A DNA stretch of 38,453 bases from assembly GCA_041603795.1 (NCBI GenBank), contig JBFIDQ010000003.1:1-38453 (forward strand). The letters are read 5' to 3'. The notes under the pieces are model-generated. The model saw nothing but the letters and a program-made list of their open reading frames with translations, ran no database searches and was not told where the DNA came from. This DNA is from Chlamydiales bacterium. Its GTDB lineage: Bacteria; Chlamydiota; Chlamydiia; Chlamydiales; JBFIDQ01. The position numbers and the translations under genes are program-made. How positions within the stretch are numbered: the first letter of the stretch is position 1; each line of letters opens with the position of its first letter. Shown here piece after piece: positions 12,879-37,898 of the stretch.

Positions 12879-12880
12879 CA

Positions 12881-19214: not shown

Positions 19215-20633
19215 ATGGATTTGTCGTTTGTCAGTGATCAGGATGTCCTCCGTTGGCTTGCAACGGGTACGTTACTGTGCCTCGTCGTTCCAGCTCTAGC
19301 TTGCCTCTGTTTGGTCAGTCGACGGGTCATGCAATTCACGTTTGGGCTCATGGTTTTCTCTGTTTGTAGTCCGGATGATTTCGGCGTCAGCTTTCTTTCC
19401 CGACCGGAATATCGCGCTGCCATTCGCGGATTCGATCTTTACCTTGCCGACTTCTGCGCATTGTCTCTTGCCTTCGTCATTATTTTCCAAGCTAAAACCC
19501 GTCACGTACGCTGGGCTGTTCCACTTTTTTGGCCCTACGTATTGTTTTTGTTAGTGGGTCTATTATCGTGGGGCGCGGCTGTGCCCTCCCTTGTTGTCCC
19601 AGACACACGTGTCCTTGAAACCATAACGGTCACGCCCCCACCCTATTCAATCTTTGACACCTCACTCTACCCTTGGTTTGAGATATGGCGTGTCGTACGG
19701 GGATTGCTCGTGTTCTGGGTTACCGTGAATTTCGTCCGCGACGAAAAAGACCTCCAGACGTTCGTCTGGGCCCTCCTTGCCATGGCGGCCTACCTCACTC
19801 TACAGGCCTTACGAGAGCGCTATTTTTATGGCTCCTATCGTGTATCGACCAATCTACTACACCCCAACGACTTTGCCATTTTTTGCGCCATGCTAAGCGC
19901 CGTTTTCCTACCGCTAGCAATTCAGCAAAAAAACATATGGAAGAGTCTTATTTTGGGCGTGGCAACGCTTGCTATGGGCGGATGTATTGTCATGACCGTT
20001 TCCCGTAGTGCCCTAGCCATTTACCTCGCTATCGCCCTCCTTACCGTTCTGATTCTGCTACCGCGATACTTTAGCGGAAGGAACCTTGCCTACCTTGGAG
20101 CTGCTTTGATTCTGATGGGAGCCGGTGCGGCACGAGCATGGGATACATTGGAGAATCGTTTTTTTAGATTGGCGAGTGTTGAACGCAGCATGAACGAGAG
20201 AGATATGTTCAATAAGGAAGCTGTGCTGATGGTGAGAGACCACCCGTTTGGCGTCGGCCTCGGCAATTTTTCCGCTTGGTCATGGGAGAAGTATGCTGAG
20301 TTGGTGGATGCCGACCTCGAGCCTGGTGTCCCCGCCCATAACATTTGGTACCTTACCTATGGGGAGATGGGTTTTGCCGGAGTAGCAGCCCTCCTCGCGA
20401 TTTGGTTTCGGACCTATCAGCTATCCCTTGTGGGGTGGTGGAGAGGATTAGAAGACTTCCCTAGAGTTCTTCTACTCGGAATCGTTCTCGCCACCGTTGC
20501 CCTTCACTTGCAAAGCCTGTTCCATTTTTCCTATCGAAATGGCGGCATCTATCACCTATTGCAAGTTTTCGTGGGCATATTGGTTGCGCTTATTTTGCTT
20601 CAGAAGGAGCAACGGCGAGCCACTCTTGCATAA
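19215..20633 (+). CDS. O-antigen ligase / Wzy_C-family polysaccharide polymerase
   Basis: Multi-TM protein with HPND, TVSRS, HPFGVGLGNF and AHNIWY...GEMGFAG motifs. Confidence 0.85.
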   Translation: MDLSFVSDQDVLRWLATGTLLCLVVPALACLCLVSRRVMQFTFGLMVFSVCSPDDFGVSFLSRPEYRAAIRGFDLYLADFCALSLAFVIIFQAKTRHVRWAVPLFWPYVLFLLVGLLSWGAAVPSLVVPDTRVLETITVTPPPYSIFDTSLYPWFEIWRVVRGLLVFWVTVNFVRDEKDLQTFVWALLAMAAYLTLQALRERYFYGSYRVSTNLLHPNDFAIFCAMLSAVFLPLAIQQKNIWKSLILGVATLAMGGCIVMTVSRSALAIYLAIALLTVLILLPRYFSGRNLAYLGAALILMGAGAARAWDTLENRFFRLASVERSMNERDMFNKEAVLMVRDHPFGVGLGNFSAWSWEKYAELVDADLEPGVPAHNIWYLTYGEMGFAGVAALLAIWFRTYQLSLVGWWRGLEDFPRVLLLGIVLATVALHLQSLFHFSYRNGGIYHLLQVFVGILVALILLQKEQRRATLA

Positions 20634-20701
20634 AAGGCGTCATCCTGGTATTTGATAAAAATAAGATTATATAATTTAGCTGTTTGAGATGAGGGTAGTG
20701 T

Positions 20702-22936
20702 ATGGACGATGATCACCCATCCCCTGAGGAAGAAAAGCCTCCCGAGGAAGAGCTCTCTAGTGAGGAAATGGCTCGCGCCTACCGCAATTTGGCCTCTCTA
20801 GAGGACTCATTTCGCAGTCTAAAACAAAAACTAGGTCATGCTGAAGGAGGCGACGTGAACCCATCTGAACCAGAAGCATCTACCGATAGAGAAATCCCCT
20901 CACTCTGCCGTGATACGAGTGAACAAGACTTTGTCACTCGCGTAGACTGGAGTAAAATAGGTCTCGGTGTGAAGCGTAAGCTTTGGCTGGTCATGACCTG
21001 CGGCGTGATTGCAGCCGCTATTGGTGCTTTAGGCGCCTTCTCCATGTCGAAAATGAAGCAAGCGACGGCCGTCGTTCTCTTCACCCAGCAACAGAGCATT
21101 AGCGACCCACAGGGGGTCATAGCATCGCGATTCAACGTACAAACCATTGCGGAAATGATCCAATCCCCTCACCACTTTGAAAAAGTGCGTCAGATGCTTG
21201 GAATTGATATTGACGTGAATCGAATTGCCTCAATGGTAAAAGTGATTTCAAGCCGCACCTCAAACGTCATTCAGATCACGGCGGCCTCCGAAAATCCGGA
21301 CCTCTCCATCGATGTGGCAAATGCCCTTGCCCAAGTTAGTGTGGACGACAGCAAGCGTCGCTATCGTGAGCACGCTATGGGCGCCTACGAATACTACGCA
21401 AAAGAGGAAGAGGGTGCTCGAAAGAATCTCGACGAGTACTCCGCTGCAATCACTCGATTCAAGCAGCAGGCTAAAGTGTTTGAGATGGACCTCTCCAACG
21501 AAAGCGCCTCTGAAAACGCTTCCAATCTACAAAAAGAGTACCGTGATGCGGCTATTGAGTATGAGGAACTTCTAGTAGAGTATGAGAATCTACAGAGGGA
21601 AATTGACAAGCTTCCAGAGCACGTGGTGCGCTATGAGTATGATGATAATCCTCTCAAGGCACGAATTGGCCACAAAGAAATGTCGCTGTTGGAAGCTCGC
21701 ACAAAATATGGCCCAGAAAATCCAAAAGTTCAGCTCCTAGAGGAAGAAATCCGACAGCTTCGCATGGCCCTATCAGACTCCAGCTTTGACGACAGTCGTG
21801 AGCAGGTGTATGAGAGAAACTTCATCAAAGAGCAGCTCAATATCGAACAGATGCGGCTACAGGGGAGACTAAGAGGGGCTCAGAAAAAACGCGAAACGCT
21901 AAAACTTGCTTTGTCAGATCTTGACGATAGTTATGAGGAGATCCCTCAGGAGCAACTTGAATACGCAGCACTTTTACGGCGATCCAATCTAGCAAATGAG
22001 GAGGTGATCAAACTCACCGAAGTTAAGCGCGATGCAAAGAGCGCTATGGAACGGGAAGTGAGTGATCTCAAAATTAGGGAGGAGGCCACTGAGGCCACTC
22101 GCCGAAGCACATTTGCTACGCGTGCGCTCCCAACCCTAGCGTTTGCCTTTGGAAGCATACTGGGACTCTTTTTCGTGGCGATTTCAGAAATCACCGATGG
22201 AAAAATCACGACTCCTGGTCAGGTTCGCAAAAACTACAGATCACCTCACCTACTGAGCATTCCGAGGCTAAAAAATCTGGAAACTGATTCGGAAGAAAAG
22301 CTCCTGTTTTACATCCGCACTCTCTCTGAGCGATTGAGTCAGTTGGTACACGATCGCCCCTTCGGTTCGGTAGCGTTCACTAGCTCAAGCGTGGGTGAGG
22401 GAAAAAGCACCATCGCATTCCATCTGGCGAAGTACTACCAACGCCTTGGAATTCGTACGGCCTATGTCGACTTCAGTTATGGTCCGAATCCATACATCAA
22501 TAGCGAATCGGGAATGGTCCTCAACACCTTCCTACATGGCGAAGCAACCCTCGCAGACATCACCATTCCGGGTGTAGTTGATTGCTTCAAGGCGGGCAAT
22601 GAGGAGGACATGAAAGAGCTCCTCAAAAGCGTCAAGATGCGGGAACTCTGGCAACAGCTGAACGACGAGTATGACATGGTCGTCGTAGAGACTCCGGGAC
22701 TGATCGAAGAGCAATATGCTGTCAATATCGCGATTCGTGCCGACCTCTGTCTCTTCGTCCTTGGAGCCTCTCAAGTTGAAAAATCAGAAATCGACTCAAG
22801 CCTACATGAGCTAGAGAGCAGTGGAGTCCGCCCTCACGGGATACTTCTAAGTCGGGTAAACCCTTCGTACATTGAGGACCCGATCATACTAGCCCATGTC
22901 AAAAAGAACGGGCGGAGTAGTGGCCGATCAGCCTAA
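20702..22936 (+). CDS. Wzc/GumC-like chain-length determinant with BY-kinase-like domain
   Basis: Two TMs flanking a coiled-coil periplasmic region (YGPENPKV); Walker A TSSSVGEGKST. Confidence 0.85.
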   Translation: MDDDHPSPEEEKPPEEELSSEEMARAYRNLASLEDSFRSLKQKLGHAEGGDVNPSEPEASTDREIPSLCRDTSEQDFVTRVDWSKIGLGVKRKLWLVMTCGVIAAAIGALGAFSMSKMKQATAVVLFTQQQSISDPQGVIASRFNVQTIAEMIQSPHHFEKVRQMLGIDIDVNRIASMVKVISSRTSNVIQITAASENPDLSIDVANALAQVSVDDSKRRYREHAMGAYEYYAKEEEGARKNLDEYSAAITRFKQQAKVFEMDLSNESASENASNLQKEYRDAAIEYEELLVEYENLQREIDKLPEHVVRYEYDDNPLKARIGHKEMSLLEARTKYGPENPKVQLLEEEIRQLRMALSDSSFDDSREQVYERNFIKEQLNIEQMRLQGRLRGAQKKRETLKLALSDLDDSYEEIPQEQLEYAALLRRSNLANEEVIKLTEVKRDAKSAMEREVSDLKIREEATEATRRSTFATRALPTLAFAFGSILGLFFVAISEITDGKITTPGQVRKNYRSPHLLSIPRLKNLETDSEEKLLFYIRTLSERLSQLVHDRPFGSVAFTSSSVGEGKSTIAFHLAKYYQRLGIRTAYVDFSYGPNPYINSESGMVLNTFLHGEATLADITIPGVVDCFKAGNEEDMKELLKSVKMRELWQQLNDEYDMVVVETPGLIEEQYAVNIAIRADLCLFVLGASQVEKSEIDSSLHELESSGVRPHGILLSRVNPSYIEDPIILAHVKKNGRSSGRSA

Positions 22937-22958
22937 ATATTGGAAGGAGAGAACGAGT

Positions 22959-24146
22959 ATGGCAAGGAAATGGACCTCACTGTTGGCGCTGCTCCTTCTC
23001 TTGATGGTGACCTCCTGCGCAAGAAAAACAGCAGCAGTAAAAGTACCCGCAGAAAAACGCGCTGCAAAACTCACCGATGATGGTTGGCGAAGAGTTGGTG
23101 ATAAAACGGATTGGGACCGAGAGGGAAAAATCCGTGCGGGTCTAACAGACGATGACTTCAAGCCGTATGATCCAAGCAAGTACGTCATCGCCGTTGGGGA
23201 TATTCTTGAGGTCTCCATCTTTGGACACGGCGACCTCCTCAGCAAGGACATTCCTGTTGCCCCGGATGGTCACCTCTACTACTTCTTTCTCGATGGCATT
23301 CCAGCTGCTGGACGCACCCCTAGAGATGTCAGCAACGAGATAGAGGCCAACATTCGCCATCTATTTGCTAGTCCAGAAGTCACCATCATTCCAAAAAATA
23401 CGACCTCGTCAACCTATGTCATCATGGGCAAGGTACAGCACCCTGGCGAATACACGATCGATTCATCACTGACCCTACGTCAGGCCATCGGCTCGTCCGG
23501 AGGCCTCGCCTCAGGTGGGTACCGAGGCACGTCCATCAACGTGGCTGCCCTCGACCACTCGTTTGTGGTACGTAATGGAAGAAAGCTTCCTGTCGACTTC
23601 AAAAAGCTGCTCAGTGAGGACAATCCGGATGATAGCCAGGATATCTATGTGCGACCAGGTGACTACATCTATATTGCATCTGGGCTGATTCATAAGATCT
23701 ATAAGCTCGGAGCTGTTCCAGAAAATCGAGCGGTAACTTGGTCAGATGATTTAACATTGGTCACAGCACTAACTGGCTACTCCGGACAAGATGGCGGATT
23801 CCATGGCACGGTGACCAGCACGTCCAATGCTGATTCGACTCACTACCGCACTACTGATTACGGCGGTGGGCGTGGCGTTGACCTCCCATACCGTGCAGAG
23901 GCGGCGATCGATCGCATCCTCATCATTCGCGGAGCCCTCGAAAAGCCTAGCGTTTTGACGGTCAATTTGGTCGACATCTTGAACGGAAAGGCCAACGACG
24001 TTTACCTCGTGCCGGGAGACATCATCTTCGTACCTGAAAAGAAACATAAGTTTACCCGCCACCTCATCAAGCGAGCAATTCTCACCTTCGCTTCCAGCTT
24101 TGCTGGTACGGCAGGGGATCACTTTACTGAAGCATGGTTGGATTAA
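22959..24146 (+). CDS. Wza-like polysaccharide export lipoprotein (Poly_export + SLBB)
   Basis: Lipobox MARKW...MVTSC, YVIAVGDILEVSIFG, VRPGDYIYI, LVPGDIIFVP. Confidence 0.85.
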   Translation: MARKWTSLLALLLLLMVTSCARKTAAVKVPAEKRAAKLTDDGWRRVGDKTDWDREGKIRAGLTDDDFKPYDPSKYVIAVGDILEVSIFGHGDLLSKDIPVAPDGHLYYFFLDGIPAAGRTPRDVSNEIEANIRHLFASPEVTIIPKNTTSSTYVIMGKVQHPGEYTIDSSLTLRQAIGSSGGLASGGYRGTSINVAALDHSFVVRNGRKLPVDFKKLLSEDNPDDSQDIYVRPGDYIYIASGLIHKIYKLGAVPENRAVTWSDDLTLVTALTGYSGQDGGFHGTVTSTSNADSTHYRTTDYGGGRGVDLPYRAEAAIDRILIIRGALEKPSVLTVNLVDILNGKANDVYLVPGDIIFVPEKKHKFTRHLIKRAILTFASSFAGTAGDHFTEAWLD

Positions 24147-24149
24147 AGG

Positions 24150-25247
24150 ATGGGCATGATGTCGCAATTTCTAACGTTTTTGGCCCTCTTCTTTATGACA
24201 GCAACTCCCGTTGTTAGTGAAGAGTTCGTTCCTGTGGAAATAGGACCGCTAGCGGGGGATGATGCACTCCTCACGAGTGACGAGGATAGAGTCGTCAACG
24301 ATCGCAAGTTCTTTGAAAAAGCGGAGGAATCTCTGCGAAAGGAATCGATGGTCGTCGATGGTTACCGACTTCGAGTGGGGGATACGATTCAGGTATCCAT
24401 CTATGGAGAGGCCAATACGGAGCGTGTGCTGACGGTGGACAGTCATGGCGGAATCTCCTATCTGCTGATCGATCGAGTGCTAGCCGTTGGAAAAACCATC
24501 AATGAGCTACGCAAAGAGATCAATGACAAGCTACGCGAAAAGCTGCGCTTTGCCCTCGTAAACGTGGTACCGGTTCGCTTCGGAGGCCTGCACTACACTT
24601 TACTTGGTGAAATAGAGATCCCGGGAAAAAAGCCCATTGTCGGCACAACGACTCTGCTAGAGGCTCTCGCATCTGGCGGTGGATTCCGAATGGGGTACTT
24701 TCGCGATGGAACGGTTGACTTAGCCGATCTTCACTATGCCTTTGTGGCGCGCAATGGGGAGTACGTACCGGTGGACTTCTATGCTCTTATTGTCGAGGGC
24801 GATGTCTCGCAAAATATTGAGATCAAAAACAATGACTACATCTATATTCCAAGTTCACTAAACCGACAGATCTATGTGCTGGGTCAGGTCAACCTCCCAG
24901 CAAATATTGGTTACCTCAACAACCAAACCCTACTGGGCGCGATCGCCAAGGCAAGAGGAATTACCCCCCTGGCATCAGATGATGCGTACATCATTCGGGG
25001 ATCGCTCGCCGAGCCTCAGAAGATAAAGGTCAATTTGCACAAAATGTTTCGTGGCGAGGAACCAGATATCCTTCTGAAGCCGGGAGACATTGTTTTCGTG
25101 CCGCCAAGACAAACGCTATTCATCGAGGACATCCTAAAGACAGCCATCCGCTCCTTCGTTTGGGCCTCTGCTCACGTGATGGGCCGTGAGGCGTTCGAAG
25201 AGGTGCACCCACACGCTGCCGGTAGCGGCAGCTTCAACGCTTTTTAA
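24150..25247 (+). CDS. Second Wza-like polysaccharide export / SLBB protein
   Basis: Signal peptide, YRLRVGDTIQVSIYG, IYVLGQV, LKPGDIVFVP. Confidence 0.85.
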   Translation: MGMMSQFLTFLALFFMTATPVVSEEFVPVEIGPLAGDDALLTSDEDRVVNDRKFFEKAEESLRKESMVVDGYRLRVGDTIQVSIYGEANTERVLTVDSHGGISYLLIDRVLAVGKTINELRKEINDKLREKLRFALVNVVPVRFGGLHYTLLGEIEIPGKKPIVGTTTLLEALASGGGFRMGYFRDGTVDLADLHYAFVARNGEYVPVDFYALIVEGDVSQNIEIKNNDYIYIPSSLNRQIYVLGQVNLPANIGYLNNQTLLGAIAKARGITPLASDDAYIIRGSLAEPQKIKVNLHKMFRGEEPDILLKPGDIVFVPPRQTLFIEDILKTAIRSFVWASAHVMGREAFEEVHPHAAGSGSFNAF

Positions 25248-25249
25248 CG

Positions 25250-26506
25250 ATGAAAGAGATCAAGAAGGTCTGCCACATCATGAGGCGCTTCACCCTCGAT
25301 CAATGGGGGGGAACGGAATCTTCTGTTCTCAATATTTCACGACACCTTGAAATGCGGGGTATCGAAAGCATCATCTATTCAACCGACATGTTTGAGTCGG
25401 CTGGCCACGATGAAATCGACGGAGTCGAGGTGCAGCGCTACCGTTATTCATTTCCTTGGTTTCAATTGAGTGAACAGGAAAAAATGGAAATGGCTCTAAG
25501 AGGGGGGAGTCCGCTCTCGCTACCTCTCTTCTTTTCACTGCTCAAGGAAAAAGATCTTTCTCTCATCCACACTCATGTTCAGGATCGCCTCGGGGGAATG
25601 GCAAGGACTGTTGCACGGTGGCGGCGCATTCCATACTTCGTGACCCTACACGCGGGCTATCTGACCCTATTGAAGAGTCATTCTGAGAGGGTGATGGAAC
25701 CGTTTCAAGACAAGTGGGAGTGGGGCAAAGCATTTGGATTTGCTTTTGGATCTCGACGCACTCTAGTCGATGCTGCGGGTATCATTTGCGTGGGTAAAGA
25801 CGAATATGAGGTCCTCTCAGAAGAGTATCCTGACAAAAAGATTTTCTACCTCCCCAATGGTGTGAACACTGAGCGCTTTTGCAATGGCGACGCCTCCTTG
25901 AGCCGCGCGCATTTTGGGTACACTCCAGACGACTACCTCATCATCAACGTAGGCCGTATTGACGAGCAGAAGAATCAAGTGCTTCTAGTGCAAGCCTTTG
26001 CACATTACGCAAAAAATCACCCCAAAGCAAAGTTGCTCATTGCGGGGCCAGTAACTGTCGACAGCTACCGCCAATACATTGAGCAAGTGATCGTAGAGAA
26101 GGGAATTTCCGACCGAGTGAAAGTGATTCCAGGCATTCCACCACACGACCCTCTTCTTGCGAGCCTCTTTAAGGCAGCTGACCTCTTTGTCCTGCCAAGC
26201 CGCATTGAGCCGTTCGGCATTGTAATTCTGGAAGCATGGGCGGCGGGACTGCCAGTAGTCGCAAGTCGTGTCGGCGGCATACCAGGGTTTACACGCCATC
26301 GTGGAAACGCTTTGCTGTTCACTTCGGAGAATGAAAAGGAACTTGTCCAGGCGATGGAGGAGGTCTCCACTAATGAATCACTTGCTCAACGCCTGATCGC
26401 AAACGGAAAAAAAGAAGTGTTGCAATACGACTGGGAAACGGTAACCGGCCAACTGCTAGAGATCTACGACACGGTACGGCGCGGCAGGGGTGCAGCAAGG
26501 GTATAG
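25250..26506 (+). CDS. Glycosyltransferase family 4
   Basis: WGGTE, PNGVN, VGRIDEQKNQ, FVLPSRIEPFGIVILEAWAAGLPVV. Confidence 0.92.
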   Translation: MKEIKKVCHIMRRFTLDQWGGTESSVLNISRHLEMRGIESIIYSTDMFESAGHDEIDGVEVQRYRYSFPWFQLSEQEKMEMALRGGSPLSLPLFFSLLKEKDLSLIHTHVQDRLGGMARTVARWRRIPYFVTLHAGYLTLLKSHSERVMEPFQDKWEWGKAFGFAFGSRRTLVDAAGIICVGKDEYEVLSEEYPDKKIFYLPNGVNTERFCNGDASLSRAHFGYTPDDYLIINVGRIDEQKNQVLLVQAFAHYAKNHPKAKLLIAGPVTVDSYRQYIEQVIVEKGISDRVKVIPGIPPHDPLLASLFKAADLFVLPSRIEPFGIVILEAWAAGLPVVASRVGGIPGFTRHRGNALLFTSENEKELVQAMEEVSTNESLAQRLIANGKKEVLQYDWETVTGQLLEIYDTVRRGRGAARV

Positions 26507-27707
26507 GAGGGGGATTGATTTGACGCTAGCTGAGCAAAAAGTGAAGGTGAGGGCAAAACTTAGCGTGGGATTTTCCAGCTTCGTTCTGCAAAGCGGCCTA
26601 TCAGGAATCTCCACCTACATCGAGAATCTCTTGCCCGCTTTGCTGAAAGCAAACCCAAACAATCACTACGATGTTTTTATTCCTGAATGCGACCGACATG
26701 TTCTTCAAGAGCTAGGGAGCCAGGAACGTCTAATCTCGACCTCATCGCATTTCACGCGCCCCATTCCATCCATTCTCTGGCACAATCTAGTTCTACCTCG
26801 CATCACAAAGAAGCAGAAATACGACTGCATCCATATCCCCACGTATCGTCGAATCCCTGCCATCAAAAAATGCCCAGTAGTCGCCACGGTACACGACCTC
26901 GCTCCGCTCTCCTATTCCCGCAAATATGGTCGACTGCACACTCTGTTCAATGCGACAACGGTCCCTCGATTGATAGAGGGATGTGACCACGTGGTAGCGG
27001 TGAGTCACTATACCAAACAGGACATCTTGAGGTACTCTAATATTCCGGAAGAAAAAGTTTCCGTGATCTATTCCGGAATCGATCATGACATCTACCGCCG
27101 TGCACCCGAAGATGAGGCGTGGCAACGTCTGGGAGAACGATATAACCTTAACCAGCCTTTCATGATCTACGTCTCACGCCTCGAATACCCCGGAAAGAAT
27201 CACCTCAACCTCATCCGCGCCTTCGAATCGTTCAAGCGCCGCAACCAAACCCAACATCAGCTCGTATTAGTAGGTGCAGACTGGCCAGGAGTCGACCAAA
27301 TTCGGGCAGCAGCGGCGGCAAGTGAGTTTGCGCACGACATTCATATCCTCGGATTTGTGCCCACGCAGGACGTCGTGGCGCTCTATTCCGTATGTGATCT
27401 GATGGTGCACCCTTCGTACTTCGAAGGATTTGGGTTCCCCGTGGTGGAAGCTTCCGCCTGCGGCGCTCGCGTCATCTGCTCGAATAACTCATCGCTACGA
27501 GAACTCGGCAAGCTCGGCAACCTGCCCATGTTTGTCCCAGGGGATATGATTGCAATCCGCTCCTGCATGGAGACCGCTCTTTCACAGGAGTGGACACAAG
27601 CCGACCGTGCCGAAGCGGTACGCTTTGCTGACCAATTCCAATGGAACGAAACGGCCAACAGGCTCCTCGATGTCTACGAAATGGCCGCTAACAGCGGGTC
27701 CCGATAG
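26490..27707 (+). CDS. Glycosyltransferase family 4 (start uncertain)
   Basis: SGISTY, TVHDL, VSHYTK, HPSYFEGFGFPVVEASACG. Confidence 0.9.
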   Translation: MQQGYRRGIDLTLAEQKVKVRAKLSVGFSSFVLQSGLSGISTYIENLLPALLKANPNNHYDVFIPECDRHVLQELGSQERLISTSSHFTRPIPSILWHNLVLPRITKKQKYDCIHIPTYRRIPAIKKCPVVATVHDLAPLSYSRKYGRLHTLFNATTVPRLIEGCDHVVAVSHYTKQDILRYSNIPEEKVSVIYSGIDHDIYRRAPEDEAWQRLGERYNLNQPFMIYVSRLEYPGKNHLNLIRAFESFKRRNQTQHQLVLVGADWPGVDQIRAAAAASEFAHDIHILGFVPTQDVVALYSVCDLMVHPSYFEGFGFPVVEASACGARVICSNNSSLRELGKLGNLPMFVPGDMIAIRSCMETALSQEWTQADRAEAVRFADQFQWNETANRLLDVYEMAANSGSR

Positions 27708-27845
27708 ATTTACACCTTATGGCTCACGCCAATAGCTGGAGTTCTGACCAGGCGTAGTCTCTAGCAAGTCATATCGAGCGACGGCATCAACTTGTGGACA
27801 CGAAGCAATCGGGCTATAGGTTCACTCCATTCATAAATCGTAAAA

Positions 27846-28388
27846 CTATCCACTCTCAGTGGATGGTTGCTGAAAATGATCTTCGCTAGGAGAGTTGTCC
27901 ATGATCTCTATCGCTTCCTGCCAGGTTTCCTTGTGCATTCCCAGAAAAGACATCTCCTCGGAAACCTGGCTATCATAGTAAATCTTTTCAGGAATACCAG
28001 TAACAAGAGCTATATTTTTTACTACACCCCCTCTAGGATCATAAAAGTAGAAAGTCAAACGTAGATGCTCAAAACCGAAGACCCCACCTTCAGCAAACGA
28101 TCGAAGTTTTGAATTCCGATTAAGTTGATTAATAAACTCTCGACAGGAGCCCACAAATATCTCTCTTGCTTCAGAAACAACGGGGTCAAGAGGTATTCCG
28201 ACCATCAAGCTAATGTACTGGATTTGACCCTTGAGATGCGCCACCCAAATTTCACAACTCTCGGAACCTGGGTATCTCTGCTCGATTTTGTCAGCAAAAA
28301 TAGAAGCTTCTGCGTAGGCTTCTTTTACCCCCTCTCCTTGAAAGCAGCAAGTAAGCATCATTAGAAAAAAAACAAGCAATGGATTCAT
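27846..28388 (-). CDS. Putative orphan Rhs immunity protein (lipoprotein-like), paralog of 28516..29061
   Basis: Hydrophobic leader ending in LTCC. Shares AY.EA..FA.KIE.RYPG, QI.YISL and ETWQEAIEI.DN.P.EDHF with its neighbour. Confidence 0.7.
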   Translation of the reverse strand: MNPLLVFFLMMLTCCFQGEGVKEAYAEASIFADKIEQRYPGSESCEIWVAHLKGQIQYISLMVGIPLDPVVSEAREIFVGSCREFINQLNRNSKLRSFAEGGVFGFEHLRLTFYFYDPRGGVVKNIALVTGIPEKIYYDSQVSEEMSFLGMHKETWQEAIEIMDNSPSEDHFQQPSTESG

Positions 28389-28504
28389 CCAGCATATCTC
28401 CTTTGGAATCTTCTATTATTATCCCGCCTAGCCTCAGCATATGTCTCGCTAACGAGCGGATGGGGGCTAGTCATAGGTTTGTTATTTAGGGCACCACGCA
28501 CCAT
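28385..28504 (-). pseudogene. Orphan Rhs toxin C-terminal remnant (39 aa, not in the ORF track)
   Basis: Reads MVRGALNNKPMTSPHPLVSETYAEARRDNNRRFQRRYAG*. It aligns without gaps to the Rhs C-terminus (8/25 identities), and its TGA overlaps the ATG of the next gene. Confidence 0.7.
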
Positions 28505-28515
28505 TCTGCCGTTGC

Positions 28516-29061
28516 CTACTCAATATTTTGTTCAAAGTGATCTTCACCTGGAGTGTTATCCACGATCTCTATGGCTTCCTGCCAGGTTTCCTCGTGAATT
28601 TTTTCAAGCTTTCCACTTTTCTTTGAATCATGGTAATAGACAAGTGAATCGCGAATAGAGAAGACATCCGTTATATTTTTTTCAGAATTGCTACCAGAAC
28701 TAGCGAATTCAAGCCTTAAATTCGAGTGAGACTCATTAAAAATATTTTCTTTCGTAAAAAGACGCAATGCTATGTTTTGATTAAGCTGATTGACAAATTC
28801 AAGGCCGAGACTAACCGATAAAACCCTAGCCTCCATCAGGTCAACTTCAACAGGAATGGCAATCGCTAAGCTTATATAGTGAATTTGCTCATCAAAATAC
28901 GACCCTCCAATTCCATAGGCTCCAGCACCCGGATACCTATGCTCGATTTTCTGCGCAAATAAACCTGCTTCTGTATAAGCCCCGTCAACATGATCTTTCA
29001 TTTCAGACCCTTCAAAGCAGCTGGAAAAAATTAAAATAAAAAAAATAAATAAAAATCTCAT
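28516..29061 (-). CDS. Putative cognate Rhs immunity protein (lipoprotein-like)
   Basis: ATGA overlap with the Rhs stop, leader MRFLFIFFILIFSSC, visibly AT-rich. Confidence 0.75.
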   Translation of the reverse strand: MRFLFIFFILIFSSCFEGSEMKDHVDGAYTEAGLFAQKIEHRYPGAGAYGIGGSYFDEQIHYISLAIAIPVEVDLMEARVLSVSLGLEFVNQLNQNIALRLFTKENIFNESHSNLRLEFASSGSNSEKNITDVFSIRDSLVYYHDSKKSGKLEKIHEETWQEAIEIVDNTPGEDHFEQNIE

Positions 29062-32000
29062 AATTGGCCGTAATGTTCAAAAAATTCTGCGTGATCACGC
29101 TTTCGCGCATGCCTATATGTCTTATTAAAGAAGCCGTGCGCACTACCCCAGGCTTCGTTAGGATCCCCCAAGTACGTTATGTAGGGGCGTCGCACGCCAT
29201 CTCGCACGTCTTTATTGAGCAACCGTGGGACAAGATCTCCTCTTGCCACGTAGTTCATGACGGAGGCGTAGCGCTTTGTATCGGTAACCAGTAGTCCACC
29301 ATAAGTTCGGACATGAATACGTTTGGCAGTGAAGTCCGATAGGGCAGCTAGCGCAAGTCCCCCTTGAATGGTGCCGTCACTGTGGAGGGTGACATAAGTC
29401 ACCTTATTAGGGTTTTCTCGCACCATCTTCTCAATTTCAAACTGTAGCCTTCGACTTTGAGGTGTTCTAGTCTTCAGAAACAGAGCGCGGGGGGTGTGCT
29501 TTAACTTGGAAAAGTGCGAGTAGCACGGGTTGTAGACAGCACCGCTATTACAGCCTCCAAGTCCCCTAGACGCGTCATCAAGCATTTTCAATGCATCAGA
29601 TGCCCTACAGTTCCAACCATTCATGGATATTGCCTGAATTCTAGAGTTGGGATTGCTTCCGATGTCGAAACGAAAAAAGGATGTCTTGCGGTGATTGGTC
29701 CATGTTGTCGGACGAGAGTGATACTGAGTTCCTGGTCGGAAAGATGCCGTTGAACCTAACCAAGAGGAGCTCGCGCTACTTGCAAAGGTAGAAGATTGGA
29801 AGAGTCCAGTGGGATCGACGGAGTCAAGTGTCTGATTTTTTACGTAGGCGTAGAGGTTGGGGCCGTCAGCAAAATCAAGTGGATCTGGGGTGAGGAAGCG
29901 ACCCGTGGAAGGTTGATAATAACGCTTGCCAAAGTAGTGGAGGCTAGACTCCCCATCAAAACGTTTTCCCTGATAGCGCCATGGAGAAAGCGTGTTGGCC
30001 TCCTCCTGTTCGCCGAAAGCAGAATAGCGGTAATTTGCTGCTATCTCGCCATCTCGTGAGACAAGGCTAAGGATGCTACCTCGATGGTCGTAGAGGGGAA
30101 TATAGGTTTGACCGTGGAGCTCGAAGGCTACCGAATGGTGAGGCCCGGGTAGACGCAGCTCTATGATGGCATCGTCTTGGTAGCTTCCAATTTCTTCGTC
30201 GCGGTAGTAGAAGTATTGCTCTGCCTCTTCTGCCTGCTGCTTGCTAAGGCGTCGACCAAAGGAATCATAGGTGTAGGTTGTTTCGATATCTCCTTGCGTT
30301 ACACTTACAAGTCGGTTGAGAGCGTCATAGGTATAGATGTTTTGGGAGTCTGAGAGCAGATTGCCATTTGCATCATACCGGTAGTTATTGTGGCCGTCGC
30401 TTTCCAGCTGATTGAGGTCATTTACTTCGTGTGCGGCGCCATCCTTGCTCTGGCGACTGTGGAGGGAATCGTTTTCATAAGTGTGGTCCGATAGGCCACT
30501 TTCCGTTTGGAGCTGATTGCGCCCATCATAGGAGAAGTTATGTGTTTGACCATCGATGGAAATCTGTGTGATCCGGCCGCCATTATCGAGGGCGTCGATG
30601 GTGTAGTCGAGTTGTGGGGTTTTGATTGAAGAGGGGCGTCCCGCAAGATCATATTGGGTGGCACGCTGGCCTGCGTTACCCATGAGCGTTTGTTGCGTGG
30701 GGCGCCCTTGCCAGTCATATTGATCGAAGGAGTGGGTTTGCCCCTTGCGCATGATCTCGGTGACAAATGGGCCGTCATACCTGTAGTCGATAAGAGAATC
30801 GTCAGGAAGAATAATGCGAGAAAGGCGGCCCATGGCATCGCGTTGGTAGTCGCTTGCCAATCCATTGGCCATTTGCTCGTGAACCAGACTGTCCCACTCG
30901 TCGTATTTTCTGATGGTACTTGACCCGTCGATCTGATTCGTGATCTCGAGAAGGTTATCCTTTAAATCGTACGTATAGATGTAATGAATGGTGCCATCGG
31001 AGCTTCGGTAGGTGGCAAGGCGACCCAATGGATCATAGCTTTTGTATAAGACCTGGCCATCTGGCTTGGTCGTTGCAATGACCCTACCCGCAAGATCATA
31101 TTGGTAGCGAGTCACCTTGCTTCCCTCGACAAGAGAGAGGACCCGCCCCATTTGATCACGTTCCCATTCAACTTCATAGACTCCACGACTCTCACCACGA
31201 AAAAGCCTGTGGTTGATCTGCTTTACGATTTTGCCACTGGCGTCGTAGAGCGTTTCGACTTTCTCTGTGCGTTCGCCAAAGGAGTTAAATCGCTGTTTGA
31301 GCGCCACTTTTCCGTTGGAATTATGGACTTCAACCAGCTGATTCCCGAGGGAATCTGTGGAAGAGCTTTTTAGGACTCGCTGTCCATGCTTGTTCAGATG
31401 ATCATAGTCGTAACAGTAGTGTGTTTCTCTCCCCTCCGGATCGATGAGCAGAACGAGTTTTCCTCTTGAGTCATAGAGCGACTGGGTTACTGATGCCTCG
31501 TGATCACTGCTCCAGACACGTTTCTCGATCACTCGATTGCAGTCGTCGTAAATTGACTCCTCTTTAGAGAAAATATCACTAGCGTCACTCACAGAACATA
31601 TTTCGATTACTCGACCCGCCACATCAAACGTTTTGAGCGTTCCGAGTCCGCCTTCCATGACGGAACACTCGCGTCCCATCGTGTCGTAGCCGAAATGCGT
31701 TTCCCTTCCTGCCTTTCGCTCCAAAATCTTTCGTCCGGCACCATCGTACTCGAATTCCGTCACAACCCCATTGGCATCGATCGTCTTGCGAAGATGGAGG
31801 CTATCGTATTCGTGGTAGGTGCCCTTTAGAAAGGTATCGTCGAGCTTGAAGACTTCCATCGCTGTAGGGCGCTGTAGAAGATCATAACTGTAGATCGTCT
31901 TGGTCTTATCACGATGAACTTTTGTGTGGACGGTCCCATTGAGATTGTAGCGGATGCGTTCCTTGGAACCATCAGGGAATATTTTTCGAGTTTGTTGTCC

Positions 32001-34220
32001 CCTACTATTGTAGGTGAGATGAGACGTGCCCCCAGAGGGGTCGGTAATGGTAACCGGCTGATCAAGCAAGTTAAGGGTCCGCTGCTCACTTGTCCGCCCC
32101 ATTCCCCCCTGCGGCGGGTAGCTTACCCCCGTTTGCCGACCTGCCGTATCATAGATATAGCGTGTGGTGTGCCCAAAGGGATCCGTTGATTTAAGCAGAT
32201 TGCCTAGCGGGTTGTAGTTCTTGGTTGCGGTTCGTATCTGCCCATCATCGTACATCTCCTCCGTTCGGATTAGGCGCCCCCCTACGTCGTAGGTGAGCTT
32301 TGTCTGAAATCCGGACCCAACACGTTCTTTTTGCGTGAGTCGATTGTTATCGTCGTATTGGTAGCGAGACACCCTACCTAGGGCGTCGCATTCCACAATT
32401 AGGCGTCGCCGTTCATCATATTCATAGTGAATTGTGTACTGCAGTTCGTCACAGGAATCGTAGAGAGAGCGTGTGGCGACGAGATCACCGTAGGTGTAAC
32501 TGAGCGTCTCCCTTTGCAGCAGCTTCTCCTCTCCCGTTTCAAGATCCAGGTAGAGCGTGCTGATTTGAACGGGAAAGCACTGCTTGTTGTATTCGAACCG
32601 CCTGATGTGTCTCTCCGTCACCCCCGCGAGACTAGTGGGGTCCTTGGAGCTGCCATCATCTTTGTAGTGGGCATATACCGTTGCATTGGAATTGTAATGA
32701 AATAGCTCCCGCAAGACGATTTTGGGTCCGTCGCAGGTGTACTTACCAACCATTAAATTGGTGCCAGGCTTGTATTCGTAGACGATTCTCGGACCAAAAT
32801 CCTCTTGCTGCGACAGCAACAGATTGAATCCATCCTCCGAGTACGTATTTGTCGTCGCAAAGGACTCCTGATGGTCACAAGTCCCCGACAGACTCCCCAC
32901 CAATATTTTCTTTAGAACATTGCCCCGCTTGTCGTAGACAAACGTCTGACTATTGAGCAAAGAGGCTCTGGCATTCTCCAGGCTGCTCATCGTGAGCTGA
33001 CCCTGCTCATCCCAAAGGTAGCGCCGAACCGAAAGGAGCCCCTCGTTTACCCCCTTTCCCAGATAACGTTCGATCGAAGAAATGCGGCTATCTTTGGTCA
33101 GACGGTAACGCGTTTTTGTTCCGCTCGGATCAAAGTGGTCCGTGAACTCAGGGAAATACTCAAAGCGGTGAGTCACCACACTCGCATTTCCCACTCCCAG
33201 AGGCTGAGAGATCTCTTTTACTCTCGAGCTATTTTCGTAGTAGGAAAGCTCAAGGTGCGAGCCATCCTTATAGAGCTTGGTAGGAAGCGGAAGCTTAGTC
33301 TTATGACCAGCGTGGTCCACAACTTTTAAGCGTGTCCACTCCGTAGATGTTTTGTCCCCCCGATCATTTTCACTGCTGTCCGTGAAGTAGCTGTAGAAGG
33401 GAGCATATCTAGTGCCGCCTACACGCCCTTTCTTAATTTCTTTTTTGGAACGATGGTAGTGTGCCCATTGTCCATTGCTTCCTTCAATGGTAACGCAATC
33501 CCCGCCCCAATCTACCTTAAGTTCTGCAAGAGTGGACTGCTCATCGCTATCCATGCTGCGGACATGGATCGTTTTATCGGAGTCATTGTAGTCATAGAAA
33601 ACTAGATTCCCATTGGGAAGGATCTCCTTCTCCAATTGAAACGCCTCCCGAATGCCTCCCAATTTAGAATAGGGCCGATAGATGCGCTTTAGACCATTCC
33701 CCTCCGTAACAACAGCCTCACCATCCATGAAGAACTTGTTAAACTTTGAGAATTCCAAACGGCTATTTTTGACATGACCACCACCACGTCCAAAATTTGT
33801 GTACCCAGACTGATAGACCTTCGGATCCACTCGCCCTTGATAGAGTTTGGATTTATCTTTTCCCGCGAAAAAGTGGCGACTCGCCCCTCGGCGGCTTTCC
33901 ACCTCAAAGACGATTTGGCCCTTTTTATTCCTTCCCCTTTTGTGCATGAAGTAGGGGATGGAACAGCCCTCGCCGTATCCGAGTTCCGTTGTAACCCCCT
34001 CAGTGGCCTCGTAGATACGGTTCCAGCTAAGCGGTGCGGGTCCGCCAATCTCCACATCTTGATTCGACTGAAAAAATGAGCCCGAAACAACGTTTACACA
34101 TCCCTCTACAGTAAGGGACGGCTCCGCCTCAGCAGCGAGTCGAGGTATCTCCGTGGTCACCGGATCCTCTGCCAAAAGAGAGGCTAAAGGAAGAAAAAGG
34201 AGAAGAAATAATAGCTGCAT
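29058..34220 (-). CDS. Rhs/YD-repeat polymorphic toxin with Sec signal peptide and alpha/beta-hydrolase-like C-terminal domain
   Basis: Many YD repeats; core end RYYQPSTGRFLTPDP...NLYAYV...DPTGL; tip with LHSDG, GDLVP and SAHGF. Confidence 0.92.
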   Translation of the reverse strand: MQLLFLLLFLPLASLLAEDPVTTEIPRLAAEAEPSLTVEGCVNVVSGSFFQSNQDVEIGGPAPLSWNRIYEATEGVTTELGYGEGCSIPYFMHKRGRNKKGQIVFEVESRRGASRHFFAGKDKSKLYQGRVDPKVYQSGYTNFGRGGGHVKNSRLEFSKFNKFFMDGEAVVTEGNGLKRIYRPYSKLGGIREAFQLEKEILPNGNLVFYDYNDSDKTIHVRSMDSDEQSTLAELKVDWGGDCVTIEGSNGQWAHYHRSKKEIKKGRVGGTRYAPFYSYFTDSSENDRGDKTSTEWTRLKVVDHAGHKTKLPLPTKLYKDGSHLELSYYENSSRVKEISQPLGVGNASVVTHRFEYFPEFTDHFDPSGTKTRYRLTKDSRISSIERYLGKGVNEGLLSVRRYLWDEQGQLTMSSLENARASLLNSQTFVYDKRGNVLKKILVGSLSGTCDHQESFATTNTYSEDGFNLLLSQQEDFGPRIVYEYKPGTNLMVGKYTCDGPKIVLRELFHYNSNATVYAHYKDDGSSKDPTSLAGVTERHIRRFEYNKQCFPVQISTLYLDLETGEEKLLQRETLSYTYGDLVATRSLYDSCDELQYTIHYEYDERRRLIVECDALGRVSRYQYDDNNRLTQKERVGSGFQTKLTYDVGGRLIRTEEMYDDGQIRTATKNYNPLGNLLKSTDPFGHTTRYIYDTAGRQTGVSYPPQGGMGRTSEQRTLNLLDQPVTITDPSGGTSHLTYNSRGQQTRKIFPDGSKERIRYNLNGTVHTKVHRDKTKTIYSYDLLQRPTAMEVFKLDDTFLKGTYHEYDSLHLRKTIDANGVVTEFEYDGAGRKILERKAGRETHFGYDTMGRECSVMEGGLGTLKTFDVAGRVIEICSVSDASDIFSKEESIYDDCNRVIEKRVWSSDHEASVTQSLYDSRGKLVLLIDPEGRETHYCYDYDHLNKHGQRVLKSSSTDSLGNQLVEVHNSNGKVALKQRFNSFGERTEKVETLYDASGKIVKQINHRLFRGESRGVYEVEWERDQMGRVLSLVEGSKVTRYQYDLAGRVIATTKPDGQVLYKSYDPLGRLATYRSSDGTIHYIYTYDLKDNLLEITNQIDGSSTIRKYDEWDSLVHEQMANGLASDYQRDAMGRLSRIILPDDSLIDYRYDGPFVTEIMRKGQTHSFDQYDWQGRPTQQTLMGNAGQRATQYDLAGRPSSIKTPQLDYTIDALDNGGRITQISIDGQTHNFSYDGRNQLQTESGLSDHTYENDSLHSRQSKDGAAHEVNDLNQLESDGHNNYRYDANGNLLSDSQNIYTYDALNRLVSVTQGDIETTYTYDSFGRRLSKQQAEEAEQYFYYRDEEIGSYQDDAIIELRLPGPHHSVAFELHGQTYIPLYDHRGSILSLVSRDGEIAANYRYSAFGEQEEANTLSPWRYQGKRFDGESSLHYFGKRYYQPSTGRFLTPDPLDFADGPNLYAYVKNQTLDSVDPTGLFQSSTFASSASSSWLGSTASFRPGTQYHSRPTTWTNHRKTSFFRFDIGSNPNSRIQAISMNGWNCRASDALKMLDDASRGLGGCNSGAVYNPCYSHFSKLKHTPRALFLKTRTPQSRRLQFEIEKMVRENPNKVTYVTLHSDGTIQGGLALAALSDFTAKRIHVRTYGGLLVTDTKRYASVMNYVARGDLVPRLLNKDVRDGVRRPYITYLGDPNEAWGSAHGFFNKTYRHARKRDHAEFFEHYGQL

Positions 34221-35609: not shown

Positions 35610-36580
35610 AGACTCAGGTGCAAGGAGTCGACTACTCGGCTCTGTCGGAAAGGATGGGTGAAGAGGTACTGAGTCGACGCCTGATGGCACAGACAAATCT
35701 CAATGCAAAAATGTTAAGCGCACGGACCAGTTGGTTCAATACCGACAGTCTATATGGACTCAACAACGCGCTAGAGGCGTGCCTCTGGCTTACTGGAATG
35801 AAAAAAACTGGTAACGAGAACTTCCGCAAAATTCAAGTTTGCTATGAAGAGACTTATTTCGATCACCTGCCCAAGGCATTCGATGGATTCACCATTTTAC
35901 AACTTACAGATCTACATATTGATGGTGATCCGGGCCTAACGGATGCGATCGTGGAAACGCTGAGCTCCATTAGCCACTACGATATTTGTGCGCTAACAGG
36001 TGACTACCGGTATCGTGTCACGGGAGCAATTGAACCGTGCATGAACGAAATGCAGAAGATTCTCCAGGCGGTCCATTCGCCCACCTACGCCGTCCTGGGC
36101 AACCACGACGATGTGGAGATGGTGCCACAGCTGGAGGAGCTCGGCGCACGGGTGCTTCTCAATGAGTCGCTGACCCTAAAACGGAATGACGAGCGGATGT
36201 ATTTGCTTGGCGTAGATGACCCTCACTACTACGGTACACATGACATTGCTGCTGCGGCAAAGGCGATCGCTCCGGAGGAATTCAAGGTACTCCTGGTGCA
36301 CTCACCGGAAGCCTACCGGGAGGCAGCACACTCTCAAATTGACTACCTTCTATGTGGCCACACCCATGCGGGTCAGGTCTGTCTACCTGGTGAGGTGCCG
36401 ATATTGCTCAATACGCGATGTCCTAGACGCTTTGGCTGCGGGGCATGGGCTTACGGCAAAATGAAGGGCTATACCTCCAGAGGGACGGGCGGATCGGGTG
36501 TCGCGGTTCGGTTCTTTTGCCCACCGGAAATCACCATTCACAAACTACGAAGAAGAGGCACTAACAACTATGAAACGTAG
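35606..36580 (+). CDS. Calcineurin-like metallophosphoesterase (YkuE/YaeI-like)
   Basis: DLH, GD, GNHD, HSPE and GHTHAGQ motifs. Confidence 0.9.
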   Translation: MKTQVQGVDYSALSERMGEEVLSRRLMAQTNLNAKMLSARTSWFNTDSLYGLNNALEACLWLTGMKKTGNENFRKIQVCYEETYFDHLPKAFDGFTILQLTDLHIDGDPGLTDAIVETLSSISHYDICALTGDYRYRVTGAIEPCMNEMQKILQAVHSPTYAVLGNHDDVEMVPQLEELGARVLLNESLTLKRNDERMYLLGVDDPHYYGTHDIAAAAKAIAPEEFKVLLVHSPEAYREAAHSQIDYLLCGHTHAGQVCLPGEVPILLNTRCPRRFGCGAWAYGKMKGYTSRGTGGSGVAVRFFCPPEITIHKLRRRGTNNYET

Positions 36581-37898
36581 CCTAATTCTTGGAATTCCAG
36601 TGGACAACAGAAACATGGAGGAAACGGTCGATGCCGTGATGAGTGCCATAACGCGCCATACTCCAGAGACTCCAGCAAAATACGTTGCTACGGTGAACGT
36701 AGACTTCCTACGCAACAGTTTTGGATGGAATCCAGGTACGATACGACACCCCGAATTGCTCAGAGTCCTGCGACATGCTGATTTTGTGACGCCTGATGGA
36801 ATGCCCATCGTATGGCTAGGCCGCCTGCTTGGCCTTCCTCTCAAGGAACGAGTGGCTGGCGCCGATCTCGTGGACCAATTGGCAAAGGCGGCAGCAGAGA
36901 AGGGGTCGTCCATATATTTTCTTGGGGGACGCGATCACTTGGGAGATCAAGCCGCAGCTACCCTGAAAAATCGCTATCCCAAGCTAAAAATTGCGGGGGT
37001 GGCAAATCCTCGCATTGCCATGTGTGGGGAAAAACTTACCGGCGCGTACGAAAGCGACAAGGCGATCGTGGAGGCCATTAACCAATCGGGAGCCGGACTT
37101 CTTTTCATCAGCCTAGGCAATCCGAAGCAGGAAATTTGGTTCAACCGAGTGCAATCGATGCTGAATGTACCCGTCTCCATTGGAATCGGAGGATCCTATG
37201 AGTTCATCGTAGGTAGCGTTCAGAGAGCGCCAAAATGGGTGCAGCGCTGTGGAGGCGAGTGGATCTTTCGCCTTGCTCAGGAGCCTGGAAGGCTCTGGCA
37301 AAGGTACGTAGGCGATCTCTTTCAGTTTCTCTATATGGCCTTCCCCGTACTCGCATTACGACTCATTCAAGCGATTGGAAGGGAGAAGGAAGCGCCTCAA
37401 CAGGAAGAGCAGGACGGAACAATTTCACTAAAGGGTGTTTCAATAGCCGCGCAGGAGAGATTGTCTAGATGTGTCGACCGCTGGAAAGAGTTCCATTCCA
37501 CAGGAAAGGCGTGCCATTTCGTCGATGTTTCCAACAAATCACTTCGAATCGCTCGACTTCACCGTTTTTCTGATGTGATCCACGGGGAACAACGAACTGA
37601 CGCAAACAAAACCGGTGCGCCGTTCTTGTGGAACGATGAGGGTCATCTCCTGACCCTATCCATTCATGAAGAACTCAATGGCCAGCTCGCATGTACCTTG
37701 GATACCGAGCTTAAATCGGTACAGTGGCAAGGCAAAACGGTCACCCTCGACCTAGAGAACTGTCCGGGAACGACTACTCACGGAATCGGCTGGGTACTGA
37801 ACTTCAAAAAGCACCTCGCAGACAATAGTGGCCACTTGAAGATGGCCAATCTATCAAAGCTAATCGAGAGAGAATTTGAAGTCGCCACCGTCGACTAA
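36570..37898 (+). CDS. WecG/TagA/CpsF glycosyltransferase fused to a STAS-like domain
   Basis: TVNVD, PDGMPIVW, ERVAGADL, LGNPKQE, RAPKWVQ..GGEW..RL.QEPGRLWQRY; C-terminal VTLDL...GIGWVL...GHLKMANL. Confidence 0.85.
   Translation: MKRSLILGIPVDNRNMEETVDAVMSAITRHTPETPAKYVATVNVDFLRNSFGWNPGTIRHPELLRVLRHADFVTPDGMPIVWLGRLLGLPLKERVAGADLVDQLAKAAAEKGSSIYFLGGRDHLGDQAAATLKNRYPKLKIAGVANPRIAMCGEKLTGAYESDKAIVEAINQSGAGLLFISLGNPKQEIWFNRVQSMLNVPVSIGIGGSYEFIVGSVQRAPKWVQRCGGEWIFRLAQEPGRLWQRYVGDLFQFLYMAFPVLALRLIQAIGREKEAPQQEEQDGTISLKGVSIAAQERLSRCVDRWKEFHSTGKACHFVDVSNKSLRIARLHRFSDVIHGEQRTDANKTGAPFLWNDEGHLLTLSIHEELNGQLACTLDTELKSVQWQGKTVTLDLENCPGTTTHGIGWVLNFKKHLADNSGHLKMANLSKLIEREFEVATVD

Follow-up and report, generated by a model that had tools for sequence, protein, structure and literature searches.

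A Rhs toxin locus in a chlamydia-like bacterium with a probable remnant of a displaced toxin tip and a retained putative immunity gene

The 38,453-nucleotide (nt) stretch of DNA considered here (the window; positions 1 to 38,453 of contig JBFIDQ010000003.1 in assembly GCA_041603795.1, from a Chlamydiales bacterium) contains a Rhs toxin locus in which the gap between two small genes appears to preserve the end of a second, lost toxin. The locus lies on the minus strand, in the order: a full-length gene for a Rhs/YD-repeat polymorphic toxin (29058..34220; 1720 residues), a small gene that we call imm1 (28516..29061; 181 residues), a gap of 127 nt, and a second small gene, imm2 (27846..28388; 180 residues), which has a glycosyltransferase gene ending at 27707 as its convergent neighbour. 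The Rhs stop codon (TGA, 29060..29058) and the imm1 start codon (ATG, 29061..29059) overlap as ATGA. The gap is itself an open reading frame (ORF), continuous for 44 codons (28388..28519), which starts 2 nt before the imm1 stop and ends at a TGA (28387..28385) overlapping the imm2 start (ATG, 28388..28386), again as ATGA; with its stop codon it covers 28385..28519, the entire imm1-imm2 gap, and a 39-residue ORF beginning at its first ATG (28504; 28385..28504) is simply a part of it. A first-pass annotation of the sequence had pointed out that the gap runs into a paralogous gene through the same overlap as that between Rhs and imm1, and the coordinates of both junctions agree with this. The gap contained no terminator-like site, matched no Rfam family and showed no unusual RNA fold (z = +1.05), so that co-transcription of the genes on either side is plausible. 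A promoter and terminator scan of 27500..29400 gave counts not above those of shuffled sequence (3 vs 3.3 and 1 vs 1.4) and hence no signal, and no tRNA was found in a scan of the locus.

Judged by its domains, the product of the Rhs gene is a complete Rhs/YD polymorphic toxin, with RHS repeats, a core and a variable C-terminal domain. It matches Pfam RHS_repeat (E 1.2e-57, in nine stretches) and DUF6531 (E 8.7e-09), as well as the NCBIfam families YD_repeat_2x (142.5 bits; cut-off 15.8) and Rhs_assc_core (TIGR03696; residues 1399-1473, 80.8 bits; cut-off 32.5). The Rhs-associated core ends in DPTGL (residues 1469-1473), a motif of the DPxGL type that we take to be the cleavage motif. At the N-terminus there is a single hydrophobic, signal-like segment, which lacks cysteine, whereas two colinear relatives of the protein (P0007 and P0012) begin with lipobox-like signals (..FFSC.. 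and ..ITSC..); lipid anchoring of the carrier is thus possible in some lineages, with a free carrier in this one.

The 247 residues beyond DPTGL (residues 1474-1720, encoded by 29061..29801) make up the current toxin tip, CT1, a basic domain (isoelectric point, pI, 10.1) that matched nothing in Pfam or NCBIfam at thresholds as lax as E 10, and for which tblastn searches of plasmids and phages gave no match. A word-indexed search with the tip among proteins of Rhs length, which depends on shared 5-residue words, recovered nothing beyond the window protein. When 1.84 billion representative proteins were scanned in full with HMMER, 13 had E values of 1e-3 or less, namely the Rhs protein itself and 12 remote relatives with 25-35% identity, so the family is both unnamed and rare. 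In eight of the 12 relatives, proteins of 526-1840 residues, the CT1-like domain is at the extreme C-terminus, and seven of these eight pass the Pfam cut-off for RHS_repeat, with P0009 falling narrowly below it. The other four are short (209-322 residues); one of them, P0008, starts within the conserved core-end motif, as would a dissociated tip or a truncated gene. Four full-length relatives are colinear with the window Rhs protein along its whole course, signal peptide and tip included, at 31-36% identity for the body and 25-32% for the tip, and on this comparison the CT1 toxin family is cargo of this Rhs clade.

Alignment of the CT1 family reveals invariant residues at G62, S78, H140 and S141 (in the motif HSxG), D189, H222 and Y229 of the tip. 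HSxG, D189 and H222 are kept in 13/13 aligned sequences, giving a Ser-Asp-His pattern in the order typical of alpha/beta-hydrolases, and corresponding in the Rhs protein to Ser1614 (29381..29379), Asp1662 (29237..29235) and His1695 (29138..29136). In the PDB the family profile finds weak matches centred on the nucleophile elbow (E 0.014-0.05), the proteins matched being a CE5 esterase, a cutinase and a lipase; the family serine is aligned with the (Y/H)SQG of the CE5 esterase and cutinase chains (E 0.014-0.024). Sub-threshold Pfam matches were seen among the 12 homologues to DUF676 (two of 12) and Cutinase (one of 12). Because of the Ser-Asp-His pattern and these weak structural and family matches, we infer that CT1 is a serine esterase/lipase-like toxin domain.

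The translation of the gap frame is VGNGRMVRGALNNKPMTSPHPLVSETYAEARRDNNRRFQRRYAG, followed by the stop codon. The first-pass annotation had aligned a 25-residue part of it without gaps to the end of the Rhs protein, and this alignment indeed contains eight identities in 25 positions (S, H, T, Y, A, R, F and Y). The local BLOSUM62 score of the gap peptide against Rhs is 44, a modest but real pairwise likeness, which shuffled sequences reached in 6/3000 trials against the last 300 Rhs residues, 0/5000 against the last 60, and 11/1000 against the whole protein. The last of these figures, together with a rough estimate that over three frames about one 127-nt gap in three would be open, might be thought to favour the view that this is an ordinary spacer, fortuitously open and fortuitously like the end of Rhs. 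An independent test used a hidden Markov model (HMM) built from the 12 remote homologues, with the window Rhs protein left out, and searched with it every six-frame stop-to-stop fragment of 15 residues or more in the window (1445 fragments). The Rhs protein came first (124.6 bits), followed by the gap peptide with 13.1 bits (E 0.0029), the third-ranking fragment having 4.3 bits (E 1.4); the best of 10,000 shuffles of the peptide that preserved its composition scored 6.8 bits, so that 13.1 was never reached. The match runs from P19-H20 to A43, residue 43 of the 44 (28391..28465), along profile positions 218-242, and position 242 is the last one matched by the full Rhs protein as well, so that the two are in exact C-terminal register. 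The histidine that the earlier annotation had singled out as putatively catalytic (codon 28462..28460) proves to be the invariant histidine of the family (H222 of the tip, H1695 of Rhs). In the light of the independent-profile score, the shuffles, the C-terminal register and the retained histidine, an origin by chance seems scarcely credible, and on these sequence comparisons the gap peptide is the C-terminal remnant of a second toxin of CT1's family, which we refer to as the CT2 stub.

The stub retains only the histidine and the terminal helix of the toxin domain. No fragment in any frame of the window (the same 1445 fragments, searched with the family profile) matched the regions of the catalytic serine and aspartate, or the Rhs core. 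With serine and aspartate of the triad missing, the stub cannot, as we read it, be either an active or a re-loadable toxin, and the expression "orphan tip" applied to it earlier is apt insofar as this is a real toxin C-terminal remnant, but not in the sense of a reusable module, since what remains is between 25 and 44 codons. Within these limits it looks like an undecayed toxin tail: its 44 codons contain no stop, indel or frameshift, at just 46% DNA identity to the CT1 tail, and it scores 11.5-15.5 bits where the equivalent tails of the 13 genuine family members, in leave-one-out comparisons, score 9.9-31.4 (mean 20.4, standard deviation 6.5), three of the 13 being at or below 13.1 bits. From the histidine onward its closest relative is P0005 (11/25 identities), with CT1 ranking sixth of 13 (7/25); its mean identity to the family is 27%, compared with 26% within the family, which is suggestive only of its being at least as like other members as it is like CT1. 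Like CT1, the stub is basic (pI 11.5), and its last codons contain the AAGGAG Shine-Dalgarno sequence of imm2.

The two small genes, which the first-pass annotation had called paralogues of an unnamed family, are just that: their products are identical at 75 of 180 positions (42%; E 5e-46), their DNA at 55%, and Pfam, NCBIfam and PHROGs give no match to either even at permissive E-values (in Pfam, no family up to E 10, including SUKH and the Imm-type families). Neither has a relative in the PDB (best E 1.2), and a word-indexed search of 5.8 billion proteins with imm2 and with a profile of the pair recovered only the two window proteins, such searches being dependent on shared 5-residue words and on length windows, so that absence is not proven by them. 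Searches by tblastn gave no match for imm1 or imm2 in plasmids, nor for imm2 in phages. Three apparent matches were set aside: a PADLOC hit of imm1 to the GajA ATPase (E 0.0033, 15.3 bits; imm2 had no match at all) was judged to be due to chance; the sole match of the imm1/imm2 alignment in the genome collection, in a Saprospiraceae metagenome-assembled genome (locus L001, 10001-10279), lies antisense within an 812-residue dehydrogenase-like ORF and is a pattern-driven false positive; and an antisense fragment of the window that matched the profile (+28113..28361, E 0.037) was treated as an artefact.

Each of the two proteins has one N-terminal hydrophobic segment, with Cys15 invariant between them, and imm1 has the lipobox-like sequence IFSSC, which fits a lipobox pattern of the PROSITE type. 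The predicted mature proteins are acidic (pI 4.70 for imm1 and 4.76 for imm2), and so complementary to the basic CT1 and stub. Their translation would be started differently: imm1 lacks a Shine-Dalgarno sequence and relies on ATGA coupling, whereas imm2 has its own AAGGAG, 9 nt ahead of its ATG. The coupled position, the charge and the signals, all occurring twice, have the look of toxin-immunity pairs, and we regard imm1 as the putative cognate immunity lipoprotein of CT1 and imm2 as the putative partner of the displaced tip. Guanine-plus-cytosine (GC) content dips over both small genes (27846..29061), with 0.376 in imm1 and 0.426 in imm2, compared with 0.491 in CT1, 0.492 in the stub, about 0.50 in the Rhs body and about 0.50-0.52 in the flanks; thus the toxin tip here is not AT-rich, unlike those of classical rhs loci.

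Might the small genes instead encode accessory or surface lipoproteins, beside a toxin directed at the host, in which case the stub would tell us nothing about antagonism between bacteria? The searches of Pfam, NCBIfam, the PDB and the word-indexed proteins provided no homologue of known function, and the 2012 survey of polymorphic toxins argues that in intracellular bacteria, Waddlia among them, the toxins mostly come without an immunity gene and serve against the host, noting an alpha/beta-hydrolase toxin without such a gene in a Parachlamydia (Zhang et al., 2012; PMC3482391). Against this, the immediate 3' position with its stop/start overlap is found twice, tail and small gene co-vary as a unit, the partner of a basic toxin is acidic, and one partner has been kept intact after its toxin was lost; moreover, lipoprotein immunity to lipases acting in the periplasm has a precedent in Tli3, an outer-membrane lipoprotein (PMC9860674). 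We consider a non-immunity role improbable.

A second alternative bears on how the stub arose. The last c. 130 nt of Rhs and an immunity gene might have been copied in situ, within the lineage, as a tandem duplication, with the copies diverging to 42% identity and the toxin tail being a mere by-product. The stub and CT1, like imm1 and imm2, each belong to one family; the stub begins right at the end of imm1, as it would at a tandem junction; and all of the full-length relatives (4/4) bear this toxin family on a colinear Rhs body. In addition, a 73-nt block near the 3' end of imm1 (28528..28600) is 84% identical to one near the 3' end of imm2 (27867..27939), compared with 55% for the whole genes. 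The repeat search and codon analysis that defined the blocks indicate that their third positions are synonymously conserved in 12 of 15 identical codons, as against 26 of 54 elsewhere, which would fit exchange between the copies or their common descent. The block encodes H(K/E)ETWQEAIEI(M/V)DN.P.EDHF, and gene conversion, a recombination anchor and constraint at the nucleotide level are all possible explanations of it. On the other hand, a useless tail as old as immunity-gene copies with 55% DNA identity should have lost its conserved residues, yet the stub scores among functional tails and far above shuffles; it is no nearer to CT1 than to unrelated members of the family; and its GC content is still at the CT1 level, as in an undecayed toxin tail. 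Duplication in situ is thus unlikely, though by no means far-fetched.

The reading that we prefer, with a probability of about 0.72, is that this is a Sec-type Rhs toxin locus bearing the scar of a change of tip, in the form of the stub and the retained imm2. An incoming CT1-imm1 module would have been joined onto the Rhs body, with the left crossover taking place through homology within that body and the right junction being illegitimate, directly past the imm1 stop and within the old tip. The old tip, CT2, would thereby have been cut back to its last 25-44 codons, losing its serine and aspartate while remaining fused to imm2. In the resulting arrangement imm1 would be made by stop/start coupling, and its product would meet and block CT1 in the periplasm or at the outer membrane; the stub would still supply the ribosome-binding site and ATGA junction of imm2, and the intact imm2 would probably provide lasting protection from relatives in which CT2 is still in use. 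The swap would have altered the specificity of the weapon and not its activity, old and new tips being alleles of one toxin family.

The same architecture as that expected from displacement could also have resulted if the stub and imm2 had arrived by horizontal transfer as an already truncated fragment and inserted downstream of Rhs-imm1, in which case no tip would have been replaced. The GC content of imm2 differs from that of imm1 and of the flanks, and transferred orphan immunity genes have been described in Vibrio cholerae (PMC5361080). However, window scans found no mobile-element gene, tRNA or flanking repeat to mark an insertion, and the stub follows on the imm1 stop without any intervening sequence, for which a junction made at the arrival of imm1 is the simpler explanation, making this scenario quite improbable.

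Several observations weigh against displacement of the tip. The full-length Rhs protein with a stub-like tip that the first-pass annotation had anticipated did not appear in the homologue and genome-collection searches, nor was any imm2 orthologue found beside a CT2-like tip, in searches limited by the shared 5-residue words and length windows already mentioned. Tips of one family, small genes of one family and the shared 73-nt block of 84% identity are also to be expected from internal duplication. The profile score of the stub falls on the low side among genuine tails, and the difference between 11/25 and 7/25 identities is not statistically meaningful over 25 positions. The sequence LTCC of imm2 is imperfect as a lipobox and there is no K or R ahead of its hydrophobic core, so imm2 may be less functional than imm1. 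Finally, all of the evidence comes from a single 38-kb contig, and the immunity family has two members. The description "footprint of Rhs tip replacement" given earlier to the locus consequently holds for the same-family C-terminal remnant, with its invariant histidine and same ATGA register, and is a probable reading only as regards an incoming module rather than duplication in situ. The active diversification and chlamydia-versus-chlamydia antagonism that were read from the locus at the same time would be inferences from analogy and not parts of this anatomy.

Displacement of toxin tips with retention of immunity genes is textbook material for enterobacterial Rhs loci, contact-dependent growth inhibition (CDI) loci and Vibrio loci of type VI secretion systems (T6SS), and as an event it is ordinary. 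In the C-terminal displacement model for rhs loci (Jackson et al., 2009; PMC2935791), a full rhs gene with its tip and partner comes first, followed by another tip piece that has its own partner and lacks a proper translation start, as here. The classical dissociated tips described there retain a partial core with the core-end repeat, and the tip itself is whole and unrelated, so that they are re-loadable, whereas the present stub has no core and consists of the last 25-44 codons only; with profile positions 218-242 alone matched and no core-like fragment in the window, it falls outside the classical definition of a dissociated tip. It also differs from them in that old and new tips share one toxin family, in that there is a single stub and no long array, and in the chlamydia-like, not enterobacterial, host (PMC2935791). 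A closer parallel is provided by module replacement in the T6SS clusters of V. cholerae, in which a new module displaces the old effector, the old immunity gene is kept and the 3' end of the old effector is sometimes left behind, homology-facilitated illegitimate recombination having been proposed as the mechanism (Kirchberger et al., 2017; PMC5361080). That system is linked to a T6SS and its effectors are not Rhs proteins, whereas here the carrier is a Rhs protein with a Sec-type signal; among the 21 large ORFs scanned in the window, no T6SS domain (of VgrG, PAAR or Hcp, for instance) was found. The orphan cdiA-CT/cdiI and rhs-CT/rhsI pairs comprise a toxin fragment without initiation signals and an immunity gene with its own Shine-Dalgarno sequence and start, the latter being thought to broaden protection, and fragments without the demarcating motif also occur; those orphans are mostly whole and still toxic CT domains, unlike the stub, from which two catalytic residues out of three are missing (Poole et al., 2011; PMC3150448).

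As to the toxin and its partner, there may be a functional analogy with Tle3/Tli3, in which a membrane-directed serine hydrolase acts from the periplasmic side and is countered by a secreted or lipoprotein inhibitor (PMC9860674), properties that are putative here. The differences from Tle/Tli systems are that CT1, imm1 and imm2 match no Pfam family, and that the toxin is carried in a Rhs cage with a signal peptide and not by a T6SS. The domains Tox-ABhydrolase-1/2/3 are, like CT1, of alpha/beta-hydrolase type and placed at the C-terminus of polymorphic toxins, one of them in a Parachlamydia (Zhang et al., 2012; PMC3482391), a comparison with CT1 made by description only; the SUKH, Imm66 and Imm69 partners given there for Tox-ABhydrolase-2/3 are not matched by imm1 or imm2. 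Among obligate intracellular bacteria, the CRCT/CRCA modules of Rickettsia are Rhs/CDI-like toxin-antidote pairs, some of them degraded, which have been read as a means of attacking related bacteria (Verhoeve et al., 2022; PMC9111745). They belong to another phylum and to other families, with the antidote upstream and no full-length Rhs carrier.

The survey of 2012 lists toxin domains on chlamydial RHS proteins, and remarks that intracellular bacteria such as Waddlia have many toxins and hardly any immunity genes, and probably do not engage in conspecific fighting (PMC3482391); we found nothing more specific on chlamydial Rhs toxin-immunity biology in the literature than these passages. It is modestly surprising, then, to find in a chlamydial Rhs locus both a coupled partner gene and a retained partner without its toxin. 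A partner kept after the loss of its toxin would point to selection for immunity, and through this to relatives as the attackers. It is possible, if doubtful, that this environmental chlamydia fights its relatives with a Sec-exported Rhs cage, a lipase-like serine hydrolase and new acidic periplasmic lipoprotein inhibitors, specificity evolving as toxin-immunity alleles are swapped like for like, with stubs and spare immunity genes left behind. Such antagonism, if real, would run counter to the view that immunity genes and conflict among conspecifics are absent from intracellular bacteria (PMC3482391), and would imply either frequent co-infection of one host cell or a stage of extracellular contact. 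Two unnamed families are in any event delimited, one a rare Ser-Asp-His toxin domain and the other a family of immunity-like lipoproteins of which no further member was found, and CT1 with imm1 or imm2 offers a clean, testable comparison of a cognate with a non-cognate pair.

The contig itself is chlamydial, because it encodes a DNA topoisomerase I with a C-terminal SWIB domain (4797..7364, minus strand; Pfam SWIB at residues 778-850), which over its full length matches NCBIfam NF004966 (DNA topoisomerase I/SWI domain fusion protein), with a score of 1349.7 bits (cut-off 868); the TopA-SWIB fusion of Chlamydia trachomatis has been described as unique (PMC12445093). The word "chlamydia", as used of this DNA by the first-pass annotation, is thus borne out in the broad sense of the phylum. 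Directly downstream of topA there is a gene for DNA-processing protein A (DprA; 7367..8449, minus strand), which would fit a capacity to recombine incoming DNA, and on its other side topA adjoins a gene for an archaeal-type ATPase (ATPase_2 and DUF234; 3101..4522, minus strand). The cytoplasmic-ring protein SctQ of the type III secretion system is represented by two plus-strand ORFs, an N-terminal part of 289 residues (183..1052) and a FliN-like C-terminal part of 153 residues (1056..1517), parted by a TAA and 3 nt, which may be a natural split or a stop introduced by sequencing or assembly. Right after it comes a gene for a Ser/Thr kinase that also carries a SpoIIE phosphatase domain (1523..3043), and this succession is presumably the chlamydial gene order. 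A CusCBA-like operon for heavy-metal efflux of the resistance-nodulation-division type (10174..16549, plus strand) encodes an outer-membrane factor, a membrane-fusion protein with two HMBD domains and a 1222-residue pump of the AcrB family. The GC content of the window as a whole is 0.50. On both sides of the Rhs locus lies a surface-polysaccharide cluster (19215..27707 and 36498..37898, plus strand), with genes for a Wzy-like ligase, a Wzc-like chain-length/tyrosine kinase protein, two Wza-like export proteins and two GT4 glycosyltransferases, and, on the far side, a WecG/TagA transferase; a large cluster of this kind is unusual for classical Chlamydiaceae.

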